In this document: piece by piece, positions 5,918 to 43,365 of the stretch
Position numbering within the stretch: the first letter of the stretch is position 1
Layout of the letters: the number at the start of each line of letters is the position of its first letter
From: Deltaproteobacteria bacterium GWA2_38_16
GTDB lineage: Bacteria > Bdellovibrionota > JACOXK01 > 2-02-FULL-40-11
Length of the DNA: 64,000 nucleotides
Assembly: GCA_001797335.1 (NCBI GenBank)
Contig: MGPE01000009.1
Location: 246-64,245, forward strand
Direction: 5' to 3'
The notes under the pieces: generated by a model
Databases searched by the model: none
Seen by the model: the letters and a program-made list of their open reading frames with translations, nothing else
What the model was told of the DNA's origin: nothing
Made by a program: the position numbers and the translations under genes

Positions 5918-6857
5918 TAATCACTTCTTCTTCTAAGGTTACACCATGAACTTCTTTAACTCTCTTTTTAGCATGCTCAATAATAGCCACAATATCTTTG
6001 GCCGCTGCTCCACCCAAATTCACAATAAAATTTCCATGTTTTGTCGAAATTTGTGCATGCCCTACTCGATAGCCTTTCAGTCCCGCATCTTCAATAAGCT
6101 TTCCGGCATAGTACCCTTTGGGATTTTTAAAAACAGATCCACAGTTAGGAAAATTTAAAGGTTGAATGGCTTTTCTTTCGGCAATTACCGTTTTAACCAC
6201 TTCCATCATTTTTTCCTTATCTCCATAATGAAGACGAAGAATAGCTCCCATCATAATCTTATTTTTACAAAAATTTTGAGAACGATATGAAAAATTTTCT
6301 TTCGTTACAAGTTGTTCTTCCAATTCTCCATTGGTATTAATCATAAATATTTTTTCTGTAATATCGCAAAAGCTGCCCCCTTTTGTCCCCGCATTCATAA
6401 AAATACCACCGCCCACTTGTCCAGGAACCCCTGCTAAAAATTCTAACCCAGAAAAACCCTGCTCTATCGACCAAAATAATAGTTTTTGTTTTAAGACGCC
6501 CGCTCCTACTTTCACTAAAATTTTTTCATCATCTTTGTGAATAATTTTTATCTCATCAAACAAAGACAAATTAATCACAACGCCTCGATATCCTTCATCA
6601 GGCATGACGAGGTTGGACCCATCTCCTAAAACAAAATAAGGAATTTTATGTTCATCAATTTTTTTCATGAGCTGAGAAAGCTCTACACTGTTTTTAGGAT
6701 AAATAAATGCATCGGCAGGCCCTCCTACTTTAAAAGAGGTGTGAAGGGCTAAGGGCTCATTCCATAAAATCTTACTTTGAAGCCCACTTAAAATATCCAC
6801 GAGTTTCACCGGTATTGTTTTTTTAAAACTTCTAAAAATTCTAAGCCACTCTTCCAA
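5901..6857 (-). CDS. murB: UDP-N-acetylenolpyruvoylglucosamine reductase MurB.
   Basis: FAD-binding region FKVGGPADAFIYPKN...YFVLGDGSNLV. C-terminal MurB domain. dcw context. Confidence 0.92.
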   Translation of the reverse strand: MEEWLRIFRSFKKTIPVKLVDILSGLQSKILWNEPLALHTSFKVGGPADAFIYPKNSVELSQLMKKIDEHKIPYFVLGDGSNLVMPDEGYRGVVINLSLFDEIKIIHKDDEKILVKVGAGVLKQKLLFWSIEQGFSGLEFLAGVPGQVGGGIFMNAGTKGGSFCDITEKIFMINTNGELEEQLVTKENFSYRSQNFCKNKIMMGAILRLHYGDKEKMMEVVKTVIAERKAIQPLNFPNCGSVFKNPKGYYAGKLIEDAGLKGYRVGHAQISTKHGNFIVNLGGAAAKDIVAIIEHAKKRVKEVHGVTLEEEVIIVHKD

Positions 6858-8185
6858 ATATCTCCAGCCCCTAAGAGTAATACAACATCCTTTGGCCTCA
6901 CATGTTTTTCCAGTTCATGAGAGATATTTCGACGACTTGCTACTAAACAAGCATGTTTATGTTTTTTTCGAAGAAGACGATATAATTTTTCTGAACTCAC
7001 CCCTTTAATGGGTTTTTCTCCAGCTGAATAAATTTCTGTGAGTAATAAAACATCTGCTCTTTGAAAAGCCCCAGAAAACTCTTTCATTAAATCCCGAGTT
7101 CGAGTGTAGCGATGCGGTTGAAAAACAGCCAGCAGTCGTCTTTTAGGCCACACTTTCTTACAGGCTTCAAGCGTGGCTTTAATTTCTGTGGGATGATGCC
7201 CATAATCATCCATGACCGTAATGCCATTCACCTCTCCTCGAATATGAAAGCGCCGCTGTACGCCACTATACGCTAAAATGCCTTTTTTTATTTTTGAAAG
7301 ACTTAACCCTAATTCAAGCCCCATAATAATGCAGGCCAAGGTATTTTTAACGTTATGAATCCCTGGAGCTTTTACTGAAAATCGTCCTAATTTTTTACGT
7401 TTAACATAGACATCAAAGGAACTGGTAATGCCTTTTAATTCAATGTGCCTGGCTTGAAAGTCACATCTTGAACTTATTCCATAGGTAATAATTCTTTTAT
7501 TCACCCGAGGGAGAATAGATAAAATATTTTTTTCATCTCCACAAACAATGCCTACCCCATAAAAAGGTAAACGATTTAAAAATGTTACAAAGGCATCTTT
7601 AATAGCCTCCATATTTTTATAATAGTCCAGGTGATCCGCATCGATATTGGTGACAATGGCAATCGTCGGAGTTAATAAATTAAAAGATCCATCACTTTCA
7701 TCGGCTTCAGCCACCAAAAATTTTCCTTGTCCCAATTTAGCATTGGTCCCCCACTTATTGAGTCTTCCTCCAATCACAACGGTTGGATCCACTTTACACG
7801 TAGCCAAAAGCGTTCCAGAGATTGAAGTCGTTGTTGTTTTTCCGTGAGTGCCAGCAATGGCAATGGCATATTTCATTTTCATAAGCTCTGCCAACATTTC
7901 TGCTCTTGGAATTACAGGAATTTTTAATTTTTTAGCTTTTAAAACTTCAGGATTACTTTTGGATACAGCAGAAGAAATAACAACCACATCAGGTTTTTTA
8001 ATATTCAAAGACCTATGACCTAGATAAATCGTAGCTCCTAATTGATTTAATCTTTTAGTAATTTCTGTAGTGGCAAGATCAGAGCCACTGATTTTATAGC
8101 CCAGGTTTAATAAAACCTCCGCAATCCCACTCATCCCAATCCCACCAATGCCTACAAAATGCACATGCCTAAAGCTTTTCTGCAT
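6806..8185 (-). CDS. murC: UDP-N-acetylmuramate--L-alanine ligase MurC.
   Basis: HFVGIGGIGMSGIAEVL N-terminus and GTHGKTTTTS P-loop. The first Met may be upstream of the real start; the ORF overlaps the murB end. Confidence 0.92.
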   Translation of the reverse strand: MQKSFRHVHFVGIGGIGMSGIAEVLLNLGYKISGSDLATTEITKRLNQLGATIYLGHRSLNIKKPDVVVISSAVSKSNPEVLKAKKLKIPVIPRAEMLAELMKMKYAIAIAGTHGKTTTTSISGTLLATCKVDPTVVIGGRLNKWGTNAKLGQGKFLVAEADESDGSFNLLTPTIAIVTNIDADHLDYYKNMEAIKDAFVTFLNRLPFYGVGIVCGDEKNILSILPRVNKRIITYGISSRCDFQARHIELKGITSSFDVYVKRKKLGRFSVKAPGIHNVKNTLACIIMGLELGLSLSKIKKGILAYSGVQRRFHIRGEVNGITVMDDYGHHPTEIKATLEACKKVWPKRRLLAVFQPHRYTRTRDLMKEFSGAFQRADVLLLTEIYSAGEKPIKGVSSEKLYRLLRKKHKHACLVASRRNISHELEKHVRPKDVVLLLGAGDIWKSGLEFLEVLKKQYR

Positions 8186-14237: not shown

Positions 14238-15691
14238 ATGGCCTCATGTGCAACTTCTCGATCATCAAAATGAATTTTTGTTTTTCCTAAAATTTGGTAA
14301 TCCTCATGCCCTTTTCCAGCGATTAAAATAATATCTTTGGGTTTAGCTAGGGCAATGGCTTTTTGAATGGCACGCTTTCGATCTATTTCCACACTATAAT
14401 TTTTTTGAGTAAATCCTCCTAAAATTTCTTCAATAATTTTTTGTGGCTCTTCAGTTCTAGGATTATCAGAGGTTACAATTACCTGATTGCTAAAATTTTC
14501 GGCGGCTTTAGCCATCAGTGGCCGTTTTTTTCGATCGCGATCTCCTCCGCATCCAAAAACCGTAATAATTCTATTTTTCTTTAACTTTTGAAGGGCTTGG
14601 CCTACGTTTTTTAGCGCATCATCGGTATGTGCATAATCGACCAGCACCAAATAGGGTTGGCCAGCATCTACCCGCTCAAGCCTTCCTGGAACCCTTTTTA
14701 AATTCCACACCCCTTGCTCAATAATTTTTTGAGAAATACCTAAAGCGCTGGCTACTCCTATAACTCCTATAATATTGGATAAATTATGTTCTCCTAAAAG
14801 CTGAGAACGAATAGAAAATATTTTTTCTCCTACCTTTATTTCCGCTTTTAACCCTTCCAAATTAAATTCAAAACTTTTTACAACGATATCAGCCCCCGTA
14901 GAATGAGTGGTAAAGCACTGGGCTACTTGTTTATTTTTTTTAAGTTCTTCATATAATTTTACTCCGTAAGGATCATCGATATTAATAATGGAAGTAGGCA
15001 TTTTTTTTTGACTGTGTTTTAAAAGATCTAAAAATAATCTTTTTTTCGACGAAAAATAATCATTAAAATCCTTATGAAAATCTAAATGATCTTGGGTTAA
15101 ATTGGTAAAAAGCCCCACATTAAAGTGGCTTCCATCCACCCGTTTTAATTTTAAGGCATGAGACGATACTTCCATAACCACGTGCCCTACTCCTTCTTTT
15201 TTCATGTCATAGAGCATTTTTTGAAAATCTAAGGATTCAGGTGTGGTATTAGGAGCAGGGATTTCTTTTCCCCCATATCGGTAATTAACAGTCCCAATGA
15301 CGCCCGGATTAAATCCAGCTTCTTTAAAGATAGATTCTAAAATATAGGTAGAAGTTGTCTTTCCATTCGTCCCCGTCACGCCTACTAACACTAAATTTTT
15401 TGTGGGATGGCCAAAAAATTCACACGATAACAGGGCCAAGGCTTCCCGGGTATCTGGGACAATAATTTGAATAATGCCTGGAGAGATATCTTGTTTTTTT
15501 TGAACCACAACAGCTTTAATACCCTTTTTAACAACATCATTGATATACTGGTGTCCATCGCAAACAAATCCTGGAACAGCCACGTATAAAGAAGAGGGAG
15601 TTACGGTTCTTGAATCTGCCGTTAAATGTTGAATTTCGATATCTTTATTTATTTTAACTTTTAAACTTCGAATAAGTGTAGAAAGTTTCAT
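14213..15691 (-). CDS. murE: UDP-MurNAc-L-Ala-D-Glu--2,6-diaminopimelate ligase MurE.
   Basis: GVTGTNGKTTST P-loop and DNPR motif (VTSDNPRTEEP). Confidence 0.92.
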   Translation of the reverse strand: MKLSTLIRSLKVKINKDIEIQHLTADSRTVTPSSLYVAVPGFVCDGHQYINDVVKKGIKAVVVQKKQDISPGIIQIIVPDTREALALLSCEFFGHPTKNLVLVGVTGTNGKTTSTYILESIFKEAGFNPGVIGTVNYRYGGKEIPAPNTTPESLDFQKMLYDMKKEGVGHVVMEVSSHALKLKRVDGSHFNVGLFTNLTQDHLDFHKDFNDYFSSKKRLFLDLLKHSQKKMPTSIINIDDPYGVKLYEELKKNKQVAQCFTTHSTGADIVVKSFEFNLEGLKAEIKVGEKIFSIRSQLLGEHNLSNIIGVIGVASALGISQKIIEQGVWNLKRVPGRLERVDAGQPYLVLVDYAHTDDALKNVGQALQKLKKNRIITVFGCGGDRDRKKRPLMAKAAENFSNQVIVTSDNPRTEEPQKIIEEILGGFTQKNYSVEIDRKRAIQKAIALAKPKDIILIAGKGHEDYQILGKTKIHFDDREVAHEAICLQLKKS

Positions 15692-17751
15692 TATGGAGAA
15701 TGTGTTTTAAATGTCACACTACATTTTTGTCCTGCTTGTAAAGCACTTCCTACTTTTAAAGACTGTTCTACGGCTACCCCACTGCCTTTAACAGTTAAAA
15801 TAAGCCCTGCTTGGCGTGCAAACTCTAGTACTTCTCGCATGGATTTACCGCGAAGATCTGGCATCTGAGAAGGGTTCTGGTCTACTCTTCGAGACACGCT
15901 ATCAAATTTCCCTGCGAGAAATTTGCGCTCCCTCTCGGACTCGCTCCCCTCAGGGACAAGTCCCTTCGGGACCATGCCCGCTCGTCCTGCGAGAGGGTCT
16001 CTTAGAATAGACCAGAACCCTTCTCTTGTAACAGTATCTTCTTCGGTGCCACCCACCCACCTGCTTGGAAAAAGTCGTAACGTATGCAACGCCACGGATT
16101 TAAATAAGGGCGCAGCCACTTGGCTTGCATAATAATATTTTTTAGGTTCATCGATTAAGACTAAAATCGTAAATTTTTCCCCTTTATGATCAGCCGGGGT
16201 AAATCCCAAAAAAGAAGCTAAAAATTTATTCGGATAATAGCCCCCCCGTTCTAAGTTTGGTTTTTGGGCGGTCCCTGTTTTCCCAGCCACCGCATATTCA
16301 TCTAAAGCGGCCAAATATCCCGTCCCATCTTCTTCTATCACCCTCATAAGTATTGCGGTTAGCTTTTGAGATACCTCCTGGGTAATCACTTGTCTTAAAA
16401 TTTGTGGCTCTGTCTCTTTTATTTCTCCTGTTTCACTTTCAATAATCTTTTTTACCACAAATGGCCGCATGAGTTTTCCACCATTGGCAATAGCCGACAT
16501 AGCAGAAATAAGTTGAATGGGCGTTACAGAAATTCCTTGTCCAAAAGCTATATTGCTTACATCAATTTTTTCCCATGTTTTAAAAGGCCGAATAATGCCA
16601 GATGCCTCACCAGGCACATCAATACCCGTTTTATTTCCAAATCCAAACTCTAATATTTTTCGATGGAATGGAATTTTCCCTAATTGAAGCGCTACTTTTG
16701 CAGCCCCAATGTTACTTGAATATTTAAGAACATCCGCTAAGGTTAGCCATCCATATTTGTGTTTTTGTGCTTCTCGAATAGAATCTTTGCTATTCACCTG
16801 AAAGTGTCCATTTTCACAAAAAAATTGTTCTGAGGGCAAAATTCCTTCTTCTAGAGCTAGCGCTGTTAAAAAAACTTTAAAAGTAGATCCAGGTTCCACA
16901 CTTTCTGTCACCGCTTGATTTTTCCATACAGATTCAGGATATTTTTTAAACTCATTGGGATTAAAATAGGGATACTGGGCTAAAGATAAAATTTCTCCCG
17001 TTATGCTATTTTGAACAATAGCTAATCCCCGACGTGCTTGAAACTTATGAACCTGATTTTCCAGTTCTCTTTCAATAAAAAACTGTAAAGATTTATCTAA
17101 AGATAAAATAAGAGAATTCCCCTCTTGTGCTTCTAAAAACTGAGTTTCATCCACAGAGATGGTTCTTCCCCGGGCATCTCTCATTAAGGCTAAAGATTTT
17201 TTTTGCCCCTGAAGAATAGCATCGTACCCATATTCCAAGCCTTCGATTCCTTGCGAATCAATCCCTGTCATTCCTAAAAGTTGTCCCGCCAATTCTTGAT
17301 TATTATAAAATCGCTGATACTCATAAATAATGCCCACGCCTTCCAAAGGGTGTTGAGTCAGTTTCGCCGTCACAGAATCATTCACTAACCGATCAATCCA
17401 CACAAAAGATTTTTTAGATTTTAACTTTGAATAGATTTTAGAATAAGAAATCCCCGTAAGATGACTTAATTTTTGAGCCATCTGTTTAGAATTTCGAATC
17501 GTTTTAGGATTAGCAAAAATGGAGCCCACCTTGCGACTCATGGCCAACTCATTCATATTCCGATCGTAAATAACCCCTCTTTTAGGAAAAAGGGTAATGG
17601 CAGCGCGATATTGACGTGAGGCTAATTCCAAAAGCCTTTGATTGGGAACCATTTGAAGTTGCAGAGCTCGTCCAACGATAAAAAGAAAGAAAAAGATCCC
17701 AATAAAAAAAATAATGAGTACTCGAAATCGTAAAAATCCCAAATGAATCAT
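15691..17751 (-). CDS. ftsI: Class B penicillin-binding protein FtsI (PBP3) with a C-terminal PASTA domain. A roughly 55-aa low-complexity insertion is encoded by the embedded palindromic element.
   Basis: N-terminal TM. Transpeptidase motifs STFK, SSN and KTGT. C-terminal PASTA-like segment MPDLRGKSMREVLEFARQAGLILTVKGSGVAVEQS. Confidence 0.9.
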   Translation of the reverse strand: MIHLGFLRFRVLIIFFIGIFFFLFIVGRALQLQMVPNQRLLELASRQYRAAITLFPKRGVIYDRNMNELAMSRKVGSIFANPKTIRNSKQMAQKLSHLTGISYSKIYSKLKSKKSFVWIDRLVNDSVTAKLTQHPLEGVGIIYEYQRFYNNQELAGQLLGMTGIDSQGIEGLEYGYDAILQGQKKSLALMRDARGRTISVDETQFLEAQEGNSLILSLDKSLQFFIERELENQVHKFQARRGLAIVQNSITGEILSLAQYPYFNPNEFKKYPESVWKNQAVTESVEPGSTFKVFLTALALEEGILPSEQFFCENGHFQVNSKDSIREAQKHKYGWLTLADVLKYSSNIGAAKVALQLGKIPFHRKILEFGFGNKTGIDVPGEASGIIRPFKTWEKIDVSNIAFGQGISVTPIQLISAMSAIANGGKLMRPFVVKKIIESETGEIKETEPQILRQVITQEVSQKLTAILMRVIEEDGTGYLAALDEYAVAGKTGTAQKPNLERGGYYPNKFLASFLGFTPADHKGEKFTILVLIDEPKKYYYASQVAAPLFKSVALHTLRLFPSRWVGGTEEDTVTREGFWSILRDPLAGRAGMVPKGLVPEGSESERERKFLAGKFDSVSRRVDQNPSQMPDLRGKSMREVLEFARQAGLILTVKGSGVAVEQSLKVGSALQAGQKCSVTFKTHSP
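15862..16028. repeat. GC-rich, nested-palindromic element inserted in frame inside ftsI. RPE/MITE-like. Terminal imperfect inverted repeats GAGAAGGGTTCTGGTCTA / TAGACCAGAACCCTTCTC.
   Basis: Inverted repeats at 15866-15883 and 16008-16025. Internal direct repeat CCTGCGAGA (15911-15919, 15987-15995). GUCCC-UUC-GGGAC hairpin at about 15957-15970. Local GC far above the flanking coding sequence. Reading frame preserved. Confidence 0.65.
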
Positions 17752-43276: not shown

Positions 43277-43365
43277 GACAGGAGATGTCTTCCTAGTATT
43301 TCTGAGGTAAAGCGCAGGCCTTCGGGGCCGAGCCACGAAGAAATACTAGGAAGACATCTCCTGTC
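43277..43365. repeat. 27-bp perfect inverted repeat, GACAGGAGATGTCTTCCTAGTATTTCT / AGAAATACTAGGAAGACATCTCCTGTC, with a 35-nt spacer containing a GGCC-UUCGG-GGCC sub-hairpin. MITE-like element and/or bidirectional terminator between convergent genes.
   Basis: Read directly. Fills the 108-bp gap between two convergent stop codons. Confidence 0.7.

Follow-up and report, generated by a model that had tools for sequence, protein, structure and literature searches.

Palindromic repeats inserted in frame into housekeeping genes are best known from Rickettsia. The Rickettsia palindromic elements (RPEs) measure ~150 bp; R. conorii has 44 integrated copies, of which almost half lie in open reading frames (ORFs) (PMC10969869). 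The MITEs of prokaryotes (miniature inverted-repeat transposable elements) are also dispersed and multi-copy, and they are mostly intergenic with intragenic exceptions (PMC10969869); QMITE2 of Coxiella, for instance, has terminal inverted repeats of 23-29 bp around a core of 113-145 bp and a stable predicted stem-loop. The DNA analysed here (hereafter the window) is a stretch of 64,000 nucleotides from contig MGPE01000009.1 of Deltaproteobacteria bacterium GWA2_38_16, in which a GC-rich palindromic island interrupts the coding sequence of the cell-division gene ftsI, located in the division and cell wall (dcw) cluster. This island is likely to be one copy of a previously undescribed family of non-coding, hairpin-forming interspersed repeats of about 140-160 nt, non-autonomous and present here as in-frame linker insertions.

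The product of ftsI in the window is 100% identical to OGP03965.1 ('Deltaproteobacteria bacterium GWA2_38_16'), and the identical protein is encoded by 14 contigs. An earlier note on this DNA had described within the gene a GC-rich island of roughly 165 bp with imperfect terminal inverted repeats, an internal direct repeat and a hairpin. All of these were found, but the size had to be corrected to 159 nt (53 codons) from outer stem to outer stem. The inverted arms (15867-15900 and 15992-16025) span 34 nt with 85% complementarity, their outermost 18 nt being perfect, and this terminal 18-mer was restricted to the two arm sites in the window even with three mismatches (0.02 expected). The direct repeat CCTGCGAGA occurs at 15911 and 15986, and the hairpin sequence GTCCCTTCGGGAC at 15960-15972. 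The GC content of the element, averaged over 120 nt, reaches 0.59, higher than anywhere else in the 64 kb, where the mean is 0.36 (standard deviation 0.057). The mRNA-sense strand folded with -91.6 kcal/mol as compared with -57.5 +/- 4.3 kcal/mol for dinucleotide shuffles (z = -7.9, 0 of 200 as good), and the opposite strand gave z = -7.2. A GC profile, shuffled controls and a structure prediction had been proposed in the earlier note as checks on the island, and each of them bore it out. The 159-nt unit contains no transposase ORF, nor any ORF besides the read-through of the host frame. Exactly one frame per orientation is free of stops, and these are the frames used in the copies of this organism; the peptide encoded within FtsI includes DPLAGRAGMVPK, and the open frame of the + strand translates to EGFWSTLRDTLSNFPARNLRSLSDSLPSGTSPFGTMPARPARGSLRIDQNPSL.

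The reading frame of ftsI remains open and the additional peptide lies where the note had placed it, in the linker between the transpeptidase domain and PASTA. Pfam domains were assigned to PBP_dimer, Transpeptidase (242-553) and PASTA (629-680), and the element covers residues 576-628. Alignment of 17 FtsI orthologues (41-67% identity), another check suggested beforehand, revealed at this site an unalignable linker of roughly 20-45 amino acids, unrelated to the element, whose peptide was present in none of the 17. The linker of the window FtsI (67 amino acids) is the longest among those compared, and a covariance-model scan of the ftsI loci of three relatives returned zero copies. AlphaFold2, run on the FtsI alignment, produced confident transpeptidase and PASTA domains and a predicted local distance difference test score below 50 at residues 565-625, and the insert is predicted to form a disordered linker. 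The element was found without any difference in nine of nine fetched loci, obtained from several samples and from NCBI, ENA and JGI assemblies, which indicates that the ftsI copy is not an assembly artefact.

Two more copies were located in the same organism, taken as GWA2_38_16 with its sister assemblies (L-numbers denote fetched contig loci, whereas P0125 and P0140 are proteins). An exhaustive HMMER search with the 54-aa element peptide gave one real match, P0125, in which the core was ~95% conserved and the arms differed. The P0125 cluster led to contig L068, whose flanking proteins were exact or near-exact matches to those of GWA2_38_16. One copy is inserted in purL, antisense to the gene. 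The full-length PurL of the organism (P0140, 749 aa, OGP05954.1) contains the insert ...PNNIA-REDDSSTLLDTLSNSPARNLRSLSDSLSSGTMPARPARGSLRVDESSSL-EDIVKMLVASPN..., which is the translated opposite strand of the element and matches the open + strand frame of the ftsI copy (opposite-strand peptide TLSNSPARNLRSLSDSL..MPARPARGSLR). Comparison with the PurL of T. thermophilus (3viu) yielded two aligned blocks separated by the unaligned residues 378-434, where 3viu has 22 residues, and this site is the linker joining the two PurM-like halves. The other copy is in sense in the gene of a 408-aa protein composed of a Ser/Thr kinase, a transmembrane (TM) helix and a PEGA domain, of which P0125 is actually the C-terminal end. 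This copy (...KPKRTLILRDEGVLSILKDPLAGRAGMVPQESESERERKFLAGEFDSVSLGIDKILSS-LSIGVLLFICIFFG...) was placed between the Pkinase domain (11-263) and the TM helix with PEGA (347-407), and it is identical in L077 (GCA_001798315.1), the same assembly as the ftsI locus L008. FtsI and the kinase have the peptide ...L[RK]DPLAGRAGMVP..ESESERERKFLAG.FDSVS in common. All three known copies of the organism are intragenic, in frame, stop-free and positioned at inter-domain linkers, with both orientations represented.

An apparent in-frame element at the N-terminus of a 142-aa PEGA protein (P0125 on L020) was withdrawn; that contig fuses the purL copy to the kinase copy, and in long contigs the PEGA part is the C-terminus of the 408-aa kinase. 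Three small contigs contain this fusion, and in the two examined (L068, 2662-2803; L020, 186-330) the crossover points differ. In both, purF, the C-terminal half of purL and the element are joined to the PEGA-bearing end of the kinase gene, exactly as would be expected after an inversion between the inverted copies, 49 kb apart on MGRH01000008.1. The joins are either real inversion isomers or repeat-induced assembly paths, and their spurious products are the 142-aa 'PEGA protein' and a 367-aa 'half PurL'.

The search for other copies that the earlier note had called for thus succeeded elsewhere in the organism, whereas no second copy was detected in the 64-kb window by blastn, nhmmer or an unfiltered covariance-model scan. 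The exact terminal 18-mer gave 0 matches in the genome collection and five single-arm chance matches in metagenomes, with no further similarity; it was the wrong probe because the arms are copy-specific. A concatenated six-frame peptide search had no match but is uninformative, as FtsI itself was likewise not recovered. The core 19-mer GCAGGACGAGCGGGCATGG, scanned against the genome collection, was found at 29 loci. Seven of them, including the contig encoding P0125, aligned across the entire core by blastn or covariance model, and the remaining 22 shared only the word (a Comamonadaceae repeat, a Paenibacillus permease gene and singletons). The covariance model (R1) scored the ftsI copy with 158 bits (E = 1.7e-36). 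In total, nine distinct copies of 142-159 nt were obtained from five or more assemblies or metagenome-assembled genomes (MAGs). Six of these copies are outside the GWA2_38_16 organism and come from four other MAGs, possibly Patescibacteria in three cases; they lie between genes or at the ends of genes. They are flanked by genes with no relation to each other (uvrB, arginine decarboxylase, cutA, a PAP2/LssY gene, a GGDEF regulator and the rplC operon) and the orientation relative to neighbouring genes is mixed, about half being antisense.

The in-frame copies in purL and in the kinase gene, together with these six, agree with the proposal that the island belongs to a family resembling the palindromic elements of Rickettsia. 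Of seven copies, four have a length that is not divisible by three, and most copies outside the window carry stops in the frame used there; therefore, the family overall is not adapted to coding sequence, and coding compatibility belongs to the sub-lineage of this genome or to survivorship. The idea of a selfish family colonising coding sequence, also put forward in the earlier note, draws support from the in-frame copies, while mobility is deduced from dispersal and the copies of the other MAGs are intergenic and often not frame-compatible.

The novelty claimed for the family was consistent with all comparisons made. Rfam gave no match at the gathering score for the ftsI copy (the sole match with E < 1 was mir-934, a generic hairpin, with 30 bits against a gathering score of 80) and nothing at E <= 1 for seven other copies. 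No copies were found by BLAST in phages and plasmids. Three scans of viral contigs were without any match, and a shorter 16-mer matched 18 loci, none of them a copy according to the covariance model. The core sequence strings had no match in the literature searched. Several candidate identities were rejected as well. An independent small RNA (sRNA) gene was discarded, given that no consistent promoter or terminator flanks the intergenic copies. Regarding a ribozyme like that of hepatitis delta virus, L023 has a 15-nt identity to the genomic ribozyme, but this lies mostly in the variable P4 hairpin and is missing in other copies. The hammerhead, twister and attC core motifs did not fit in a by-eye comparison.

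A single fold was supported by alignments of seven and later nine copies (A6). It comprises an outer stem (P1), a purine-rich internal loop, the stem P2 and a three-way junction, conserved at its junction nucleotides, with P3, P3b, a variable hairpin (P4) and a hairpin (P5). P1 has 19-27 bp in every copy and its sequence is largely copy-specific; the internal loop is 2x2 or 3x3 (AA/GA, GAG/CGA, GAG/GAA and similar). The direct repeat CCTGCGAGA is located in the loop of P5 and in P3. In the nine sequences 95.7% of cells were paired and both sides changed in 37 of 57 pairs, and 0 of 500 shuffles reached any of the measures, although the sequences are few and A6 was fitted to the model. All 19 modelled pairs of P1 and 7 of the 10 pairs of P5 covary, and the covariation score was 0.598, whereas shifting the register by 1-3 columns gave no more than 0.184. 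In the RNAalifold prediction there was a local hairpin (columns 30-43) whose only variable positions break pairing. The long-range helix P3 was preferred, because two compensatory changes (G31C with C97G in the window sub-lineage; U34G with A95C in L022) fit P3 and break the local hairpin. The core contains 25 G·U cells and 0 A·C cells, and therefore good folding is confined to the strand read as sense in ftsI, whereas P1, with 7 G·U and 5 A·C cells, has no strand bias. That the first block of the core does not vary is in part a consequence of the 19-mer used for discovery. The invariance of the unpaired stretch between P3 and P3b says little, since nine of its ten nucleotides fall in the 19-mer and the copies found independently of it (ftsI, purL and kinase) represent one sub-lineage.

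A strain variant (L015) differed from the reference (L006) at 5 of 22,061 nt, four of the differences being clustered within 18 nt at the P4 hairpin. This hairpin is still predicted in the variant, with slightly lower stability (-86.8 versus -90.1 kcal/mol), and the cluster could be a mutational hot spot, a conversion from another copy or the result of mixed reads.

Core and arms have diverged in different ways. Between the purL copy and the kinase copy, the cores have 1 differing nt in ~100, whereas the middle 8-12 nt of their arms are unrelated and yet complementary within each copy. What the arms of different copies have in common is limited to their extreme ends (AGAGA[AT]G in this genome) and their inner 9 nt. 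L021 and L040 likewise combine a conserved core with differing arms, and the type-B cores of clean1852 (L021, L040) and WY2.bin70 (L041) are identical outside P4 at unrelated loci. Palindromy continues into the host flank. This extension was significant for the copy in the kinase gene (p = 0.011) and for those of L022 (p < 0.002) and L023 (p = 0.002), whereas at the ftsI and purL copies it was not; in the kinase copy the arms attain 56 nt and reach the codons of the TM helix. The extension may reflect palindrome creep, or target DNA copied in inverse orientation. Similarly, the unrelated but complementary arms may be due to quasipalindrome correction at the DNA level, or to an insertion process that copies target DNA in inverted form. 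The outer stem has no strand bias in its wobble pairs and has diverged much faster than the core; it is probably kept complementary by DNA-level palindrome correction and not by selection.

Since the copies are dispersed, multiple, foreign in composition, inserted at unrelated sites in both orientations and absent in orthologues, they are best read as a non-autonomous mobile repeat. According to this reading, the copies would have arrived by insertion of an element moved in trans, and the conserved core would be recognised by the moving machinery on a single-stranded RNA or DNA intermediate. In essential genes the only survivors would be insertions that use the one open frame of their orientation and that fall in flexible linkers; such copies would be translated as an extra disordered linker peptide and tolerated for that reason. 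The ftsI copy is most simply a tolerated passenger that adds 53 residues to an already variable, disordered linker.

Several results weigh against insertion of a mobile element. By inspection, neither a target-site duplication nor a shared target motif was seen at the nine copies; the lack of duplication is a weak result, because direct repeats of this kind decay with age according to a review. No transposase, reverse transcriptase or other shared neighbour protein was found in roughly 150 kb around the copies, and an all-versus-all blastp of the ORFs around seven loci, which sought an associated protein, matched only translations of the element itself. No empty site was encountered within the species: every member of the 90% FtsI protein cluster has the element, as do all the full-length PurL members of the corresponding cluster (both of 749 aa). 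Two scans of the genome collection gave no contig of the GWA2_38_16 organism, which is either absent there or masked. Finally, conservation is much stronger in the core than in the arms. In a classical MITE it is the terminal repeats that are conserved, and the pattern seen here would also fit a functional RNA family.

Such a functional RNA is the first alternative: the core would be a structured RNA (a multi-copy sRNA, a protein-binding RNA or a ribozyme) under selection in each copy, and the intragenic copies would be incidental or exapted. In favour of it, some positions of the core are invariant without being dictated by the search word (e.g. GAGCGAGUCCGAG and AUAGCGUGU), covariation is strong, G·U pairs are strand-specific, the type-B core is maintained between different MAGs, and core and arms contrast even within one genome. 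Nevertheless, we regard it as rather unlikely, given the intergenic copies without consistent promoter or terminator and often antisense to their neighbours, the lack of an Rfam match and of a conserved neighbour gene, and the three copies buried in ORFs, one of them antisense to its gene. This alternative overlaps with the non-autonomous mobile repeat, as a mobile RNA-based element would have the same features.

Side by side with the family, a second GC-rich hairpin element was observed in the window at 43277-43365, intergenic between convergent genes, with perfect 27-bp arms and a 35-nt centre. A 42-nt centre of this element recurs at 93% identity between purC and purS of the same organism (L070, 531-642) within different 33-nt arms, and the element is similar to the ftsI family in its inner arm and its GAG/GAA loop. 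An unlikely possibility is that the three-way-junction core is an active RNA or single-stranded DNA module (a scaffold for a reverse transcriptase or for an HUH enzyme or recombinase, or a small ribozyme), which would define a new class of hairpin-forming mobile elements that build copy-specific inverted repeats from the flanking target DNA, on insertion or during later replication. This would explain the near-identical cores in unrelated arms, the second family of the same layout and the extension of palindromy into coding sequence of the host at the kinase copy, L022 and L023.

It is highly improbable that the host uses the hairpin in cis within the ftsI mRNA, for instance as an inter-domain translational pause or a stability element. 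The very stable structure lies exactly at the domain boundary and on the sense strand, but the element is antisense in purL, occurs at unrelated intergenic sites of other MAGs and is found in no FtsI orthologue. The purL mRNA carries the poorer-folding strand, which argues against a function in the host mRNA. A native, fast-evolving FtsI linker that is palindromic by chance, or an assembly artefact, is hardly credible: orthologues do have variable linkers at the same position, but the fold departs strongly from the shuffles, the GC content is 4 standard deviations over the window mean, homologous copies exist in purL, the kinase gene and other MAGs, and all the fetched loci agree.

The coordinates of these features are collected in Table 1, with those of further repeats. 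In the Patescibacteria-labelled MAGs, long inverted repeats of other kinds, whose centres are unrelated, lie at about 1-6 kb from the family copies; one of them, in L023, has the same layout (long stem, GA loop, two hairpins) and scored 29 bits with the model. A repeat of ~100 nt is present at gene ends in Comamonadaceae, with seven copies in Pseudacidovorax intermedius alone. It has the 19-mer GCAGGACGAGCGGGCATGG after GCGTGTTTTG and is otherwise dissimilar to the family, so that the coincidence was treated as chance. In the neighbourhood of the purine operon of the GWA2_38_16 organism, purQ and a TPR gene are separated by a gene with an AbiEii domain (L070, 2252-3049), a domain typical of toxin-antitoxin systems that act by abortive infection.

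Table 1. Coordinates of the ftsI element, of the other family copies and of further repeats (positions without a locus number refer to the window; MFE, minimum free energy).
Feature	Location	Strand or orientation	Basis	Remarks
ftsI (class B penicillin-binding protein, 686 aa)	15691..17751	-	ORF and Pfam	host gene of the element
Palindromic element	15867..16025	-		159 nt on the ftsI sense strand; codes for FtsI residues 576-628
P1 5' arm	16004..16025	-	MFE structure	GAGAAGGGUUCUGGUCUAUUCU
P1 3' arm	15867..15888	-	MFE structure, inverted-repeat search	AGAGUAGACCAGAACCCUUCUC
Conserved core	15889..16003	-	alignments A4 and A6, pair counts	AA/GA loop, P2, three-way junction with P3, P3b, P4 and P5
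Unpaired 10-nt stretch	15981..15990	-	alignment	GCAGGACGAG, between P3 and P3b
P4 variable hairpin	15941..15971	-		15 nt longer than in the purL and kinase copies; holds the population SNP (single-nucleotide polymorphism) cluster
P5 hairpin	15903..15926	-	inverted pair	GCAAAUUUC-UCGCAGG-GAAAUUUG; compensatory change in 7/10 pairs
L015 variant sites in P4	15941, 15950, 15953, 15958			
purL copy	L070 11158-11299	antisense to purL	covariance model	in frame
Kinase copy	L073 10842-10983	sense	covariance model	in frame
Family copies	L021, L040			'bacterium clean1852'
Family copy	L022			'Deltaproteobacteria nzgw280'
Family copies	L023, L041			'bacterium WY2.bin70'
Family copy	L034			'Patescibacteria group bacterium FK_Sedi_B_Bin.358'; orthologous to L041
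Whole-core match	L020			contig encoding P0125; fuses the purL copy to the kinase copy
Extended palindromy	L073 10819-11006; L022 about 6700-6940; L023 about 6320-6575			flanks include kinase TM-helix codons and uvrB N-terminal codons
Other inverted-repeat elements	L021 5220-5399; L034 5149-5326; L023 402-547			
Comamonadaceae repeat	L024, L026, L028, L030, L031, L033, L036, L044, L048, L049			

In-frame repeats like those of Rickettsia are hereby extended to a free-living, uncultured groundwater lineage and to three genes, among them that of the essential division transpeptidase FtsI, which suggests that the addition of linkers by selfish repeats is a more general route of protein evolution. 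A puzzle is the core, conserved across MAGs labelled as different higher taxa while the arms differ between the copies of one genome. On the practical side, repeats of this kind make proteins appear longer and give rise to spurious ORFs (ORFs were run through copies in both directions by gene callers), and they yield alternative contig joins such as those of L068 and L020.

Among the systems described, the MITEs (QMITE2, Correia/NEMIS, and ERIC, the enterobacterial repetitive intergenic consensus) share with this family the small size, the lack of a transposase gene, the terminal inverted repeats around a core and the very stable predicted stem-loop. The copies described here are short, lack a transposase ORF and end in inverted repeats. 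They differ from MITEs in that no target-site duplication was found, in that the mid-section of the terminal repeats varies from copy to copy, also inside a single genome, and in the core, which is GC-rich instead of AT-rich, with no parent insertion sequence known. The ERIC sequence is reportedly conserved across species at differing locations (Wilson and Sharp, 2006), in which it can be likened to the present family. The palindrome-associated transposable elements (PATEs) derived from IS200/IS605 are similar in their strand-specific single-strand hairpins, the lack of target duplication and their nature as small non-autonomous units. PATEs have subterminal hairpins at each end, unlike the one long closing stem of this family, for which neither a conserved 4-5-nt target adjoining the copies nor a TnpA was seen.

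The closest likeness is to the RPEs, which also are ~150-bp palindromic repeats placed in frame in unrelated housekeeping genes as well as outside genes, and which contribute a peptide specific to the family where the fold of the protein allows it. Here, a dispersed palindrome was found in frame in several unrelated ORFs, namely in three genes at three inter-domain linkers, each orientation having its own conserved peptide. The host is not Rickettsia but uncultured groundwater MAGs, the core is GC-rich in a genome of 36-40% GC and conserved within copy-specific outer stems, and this core family extends to MAGs labelled as different higher taxa. Hence, the element appears to work like an RPE without being filed as one, the likeness being drawn from its behaviour.

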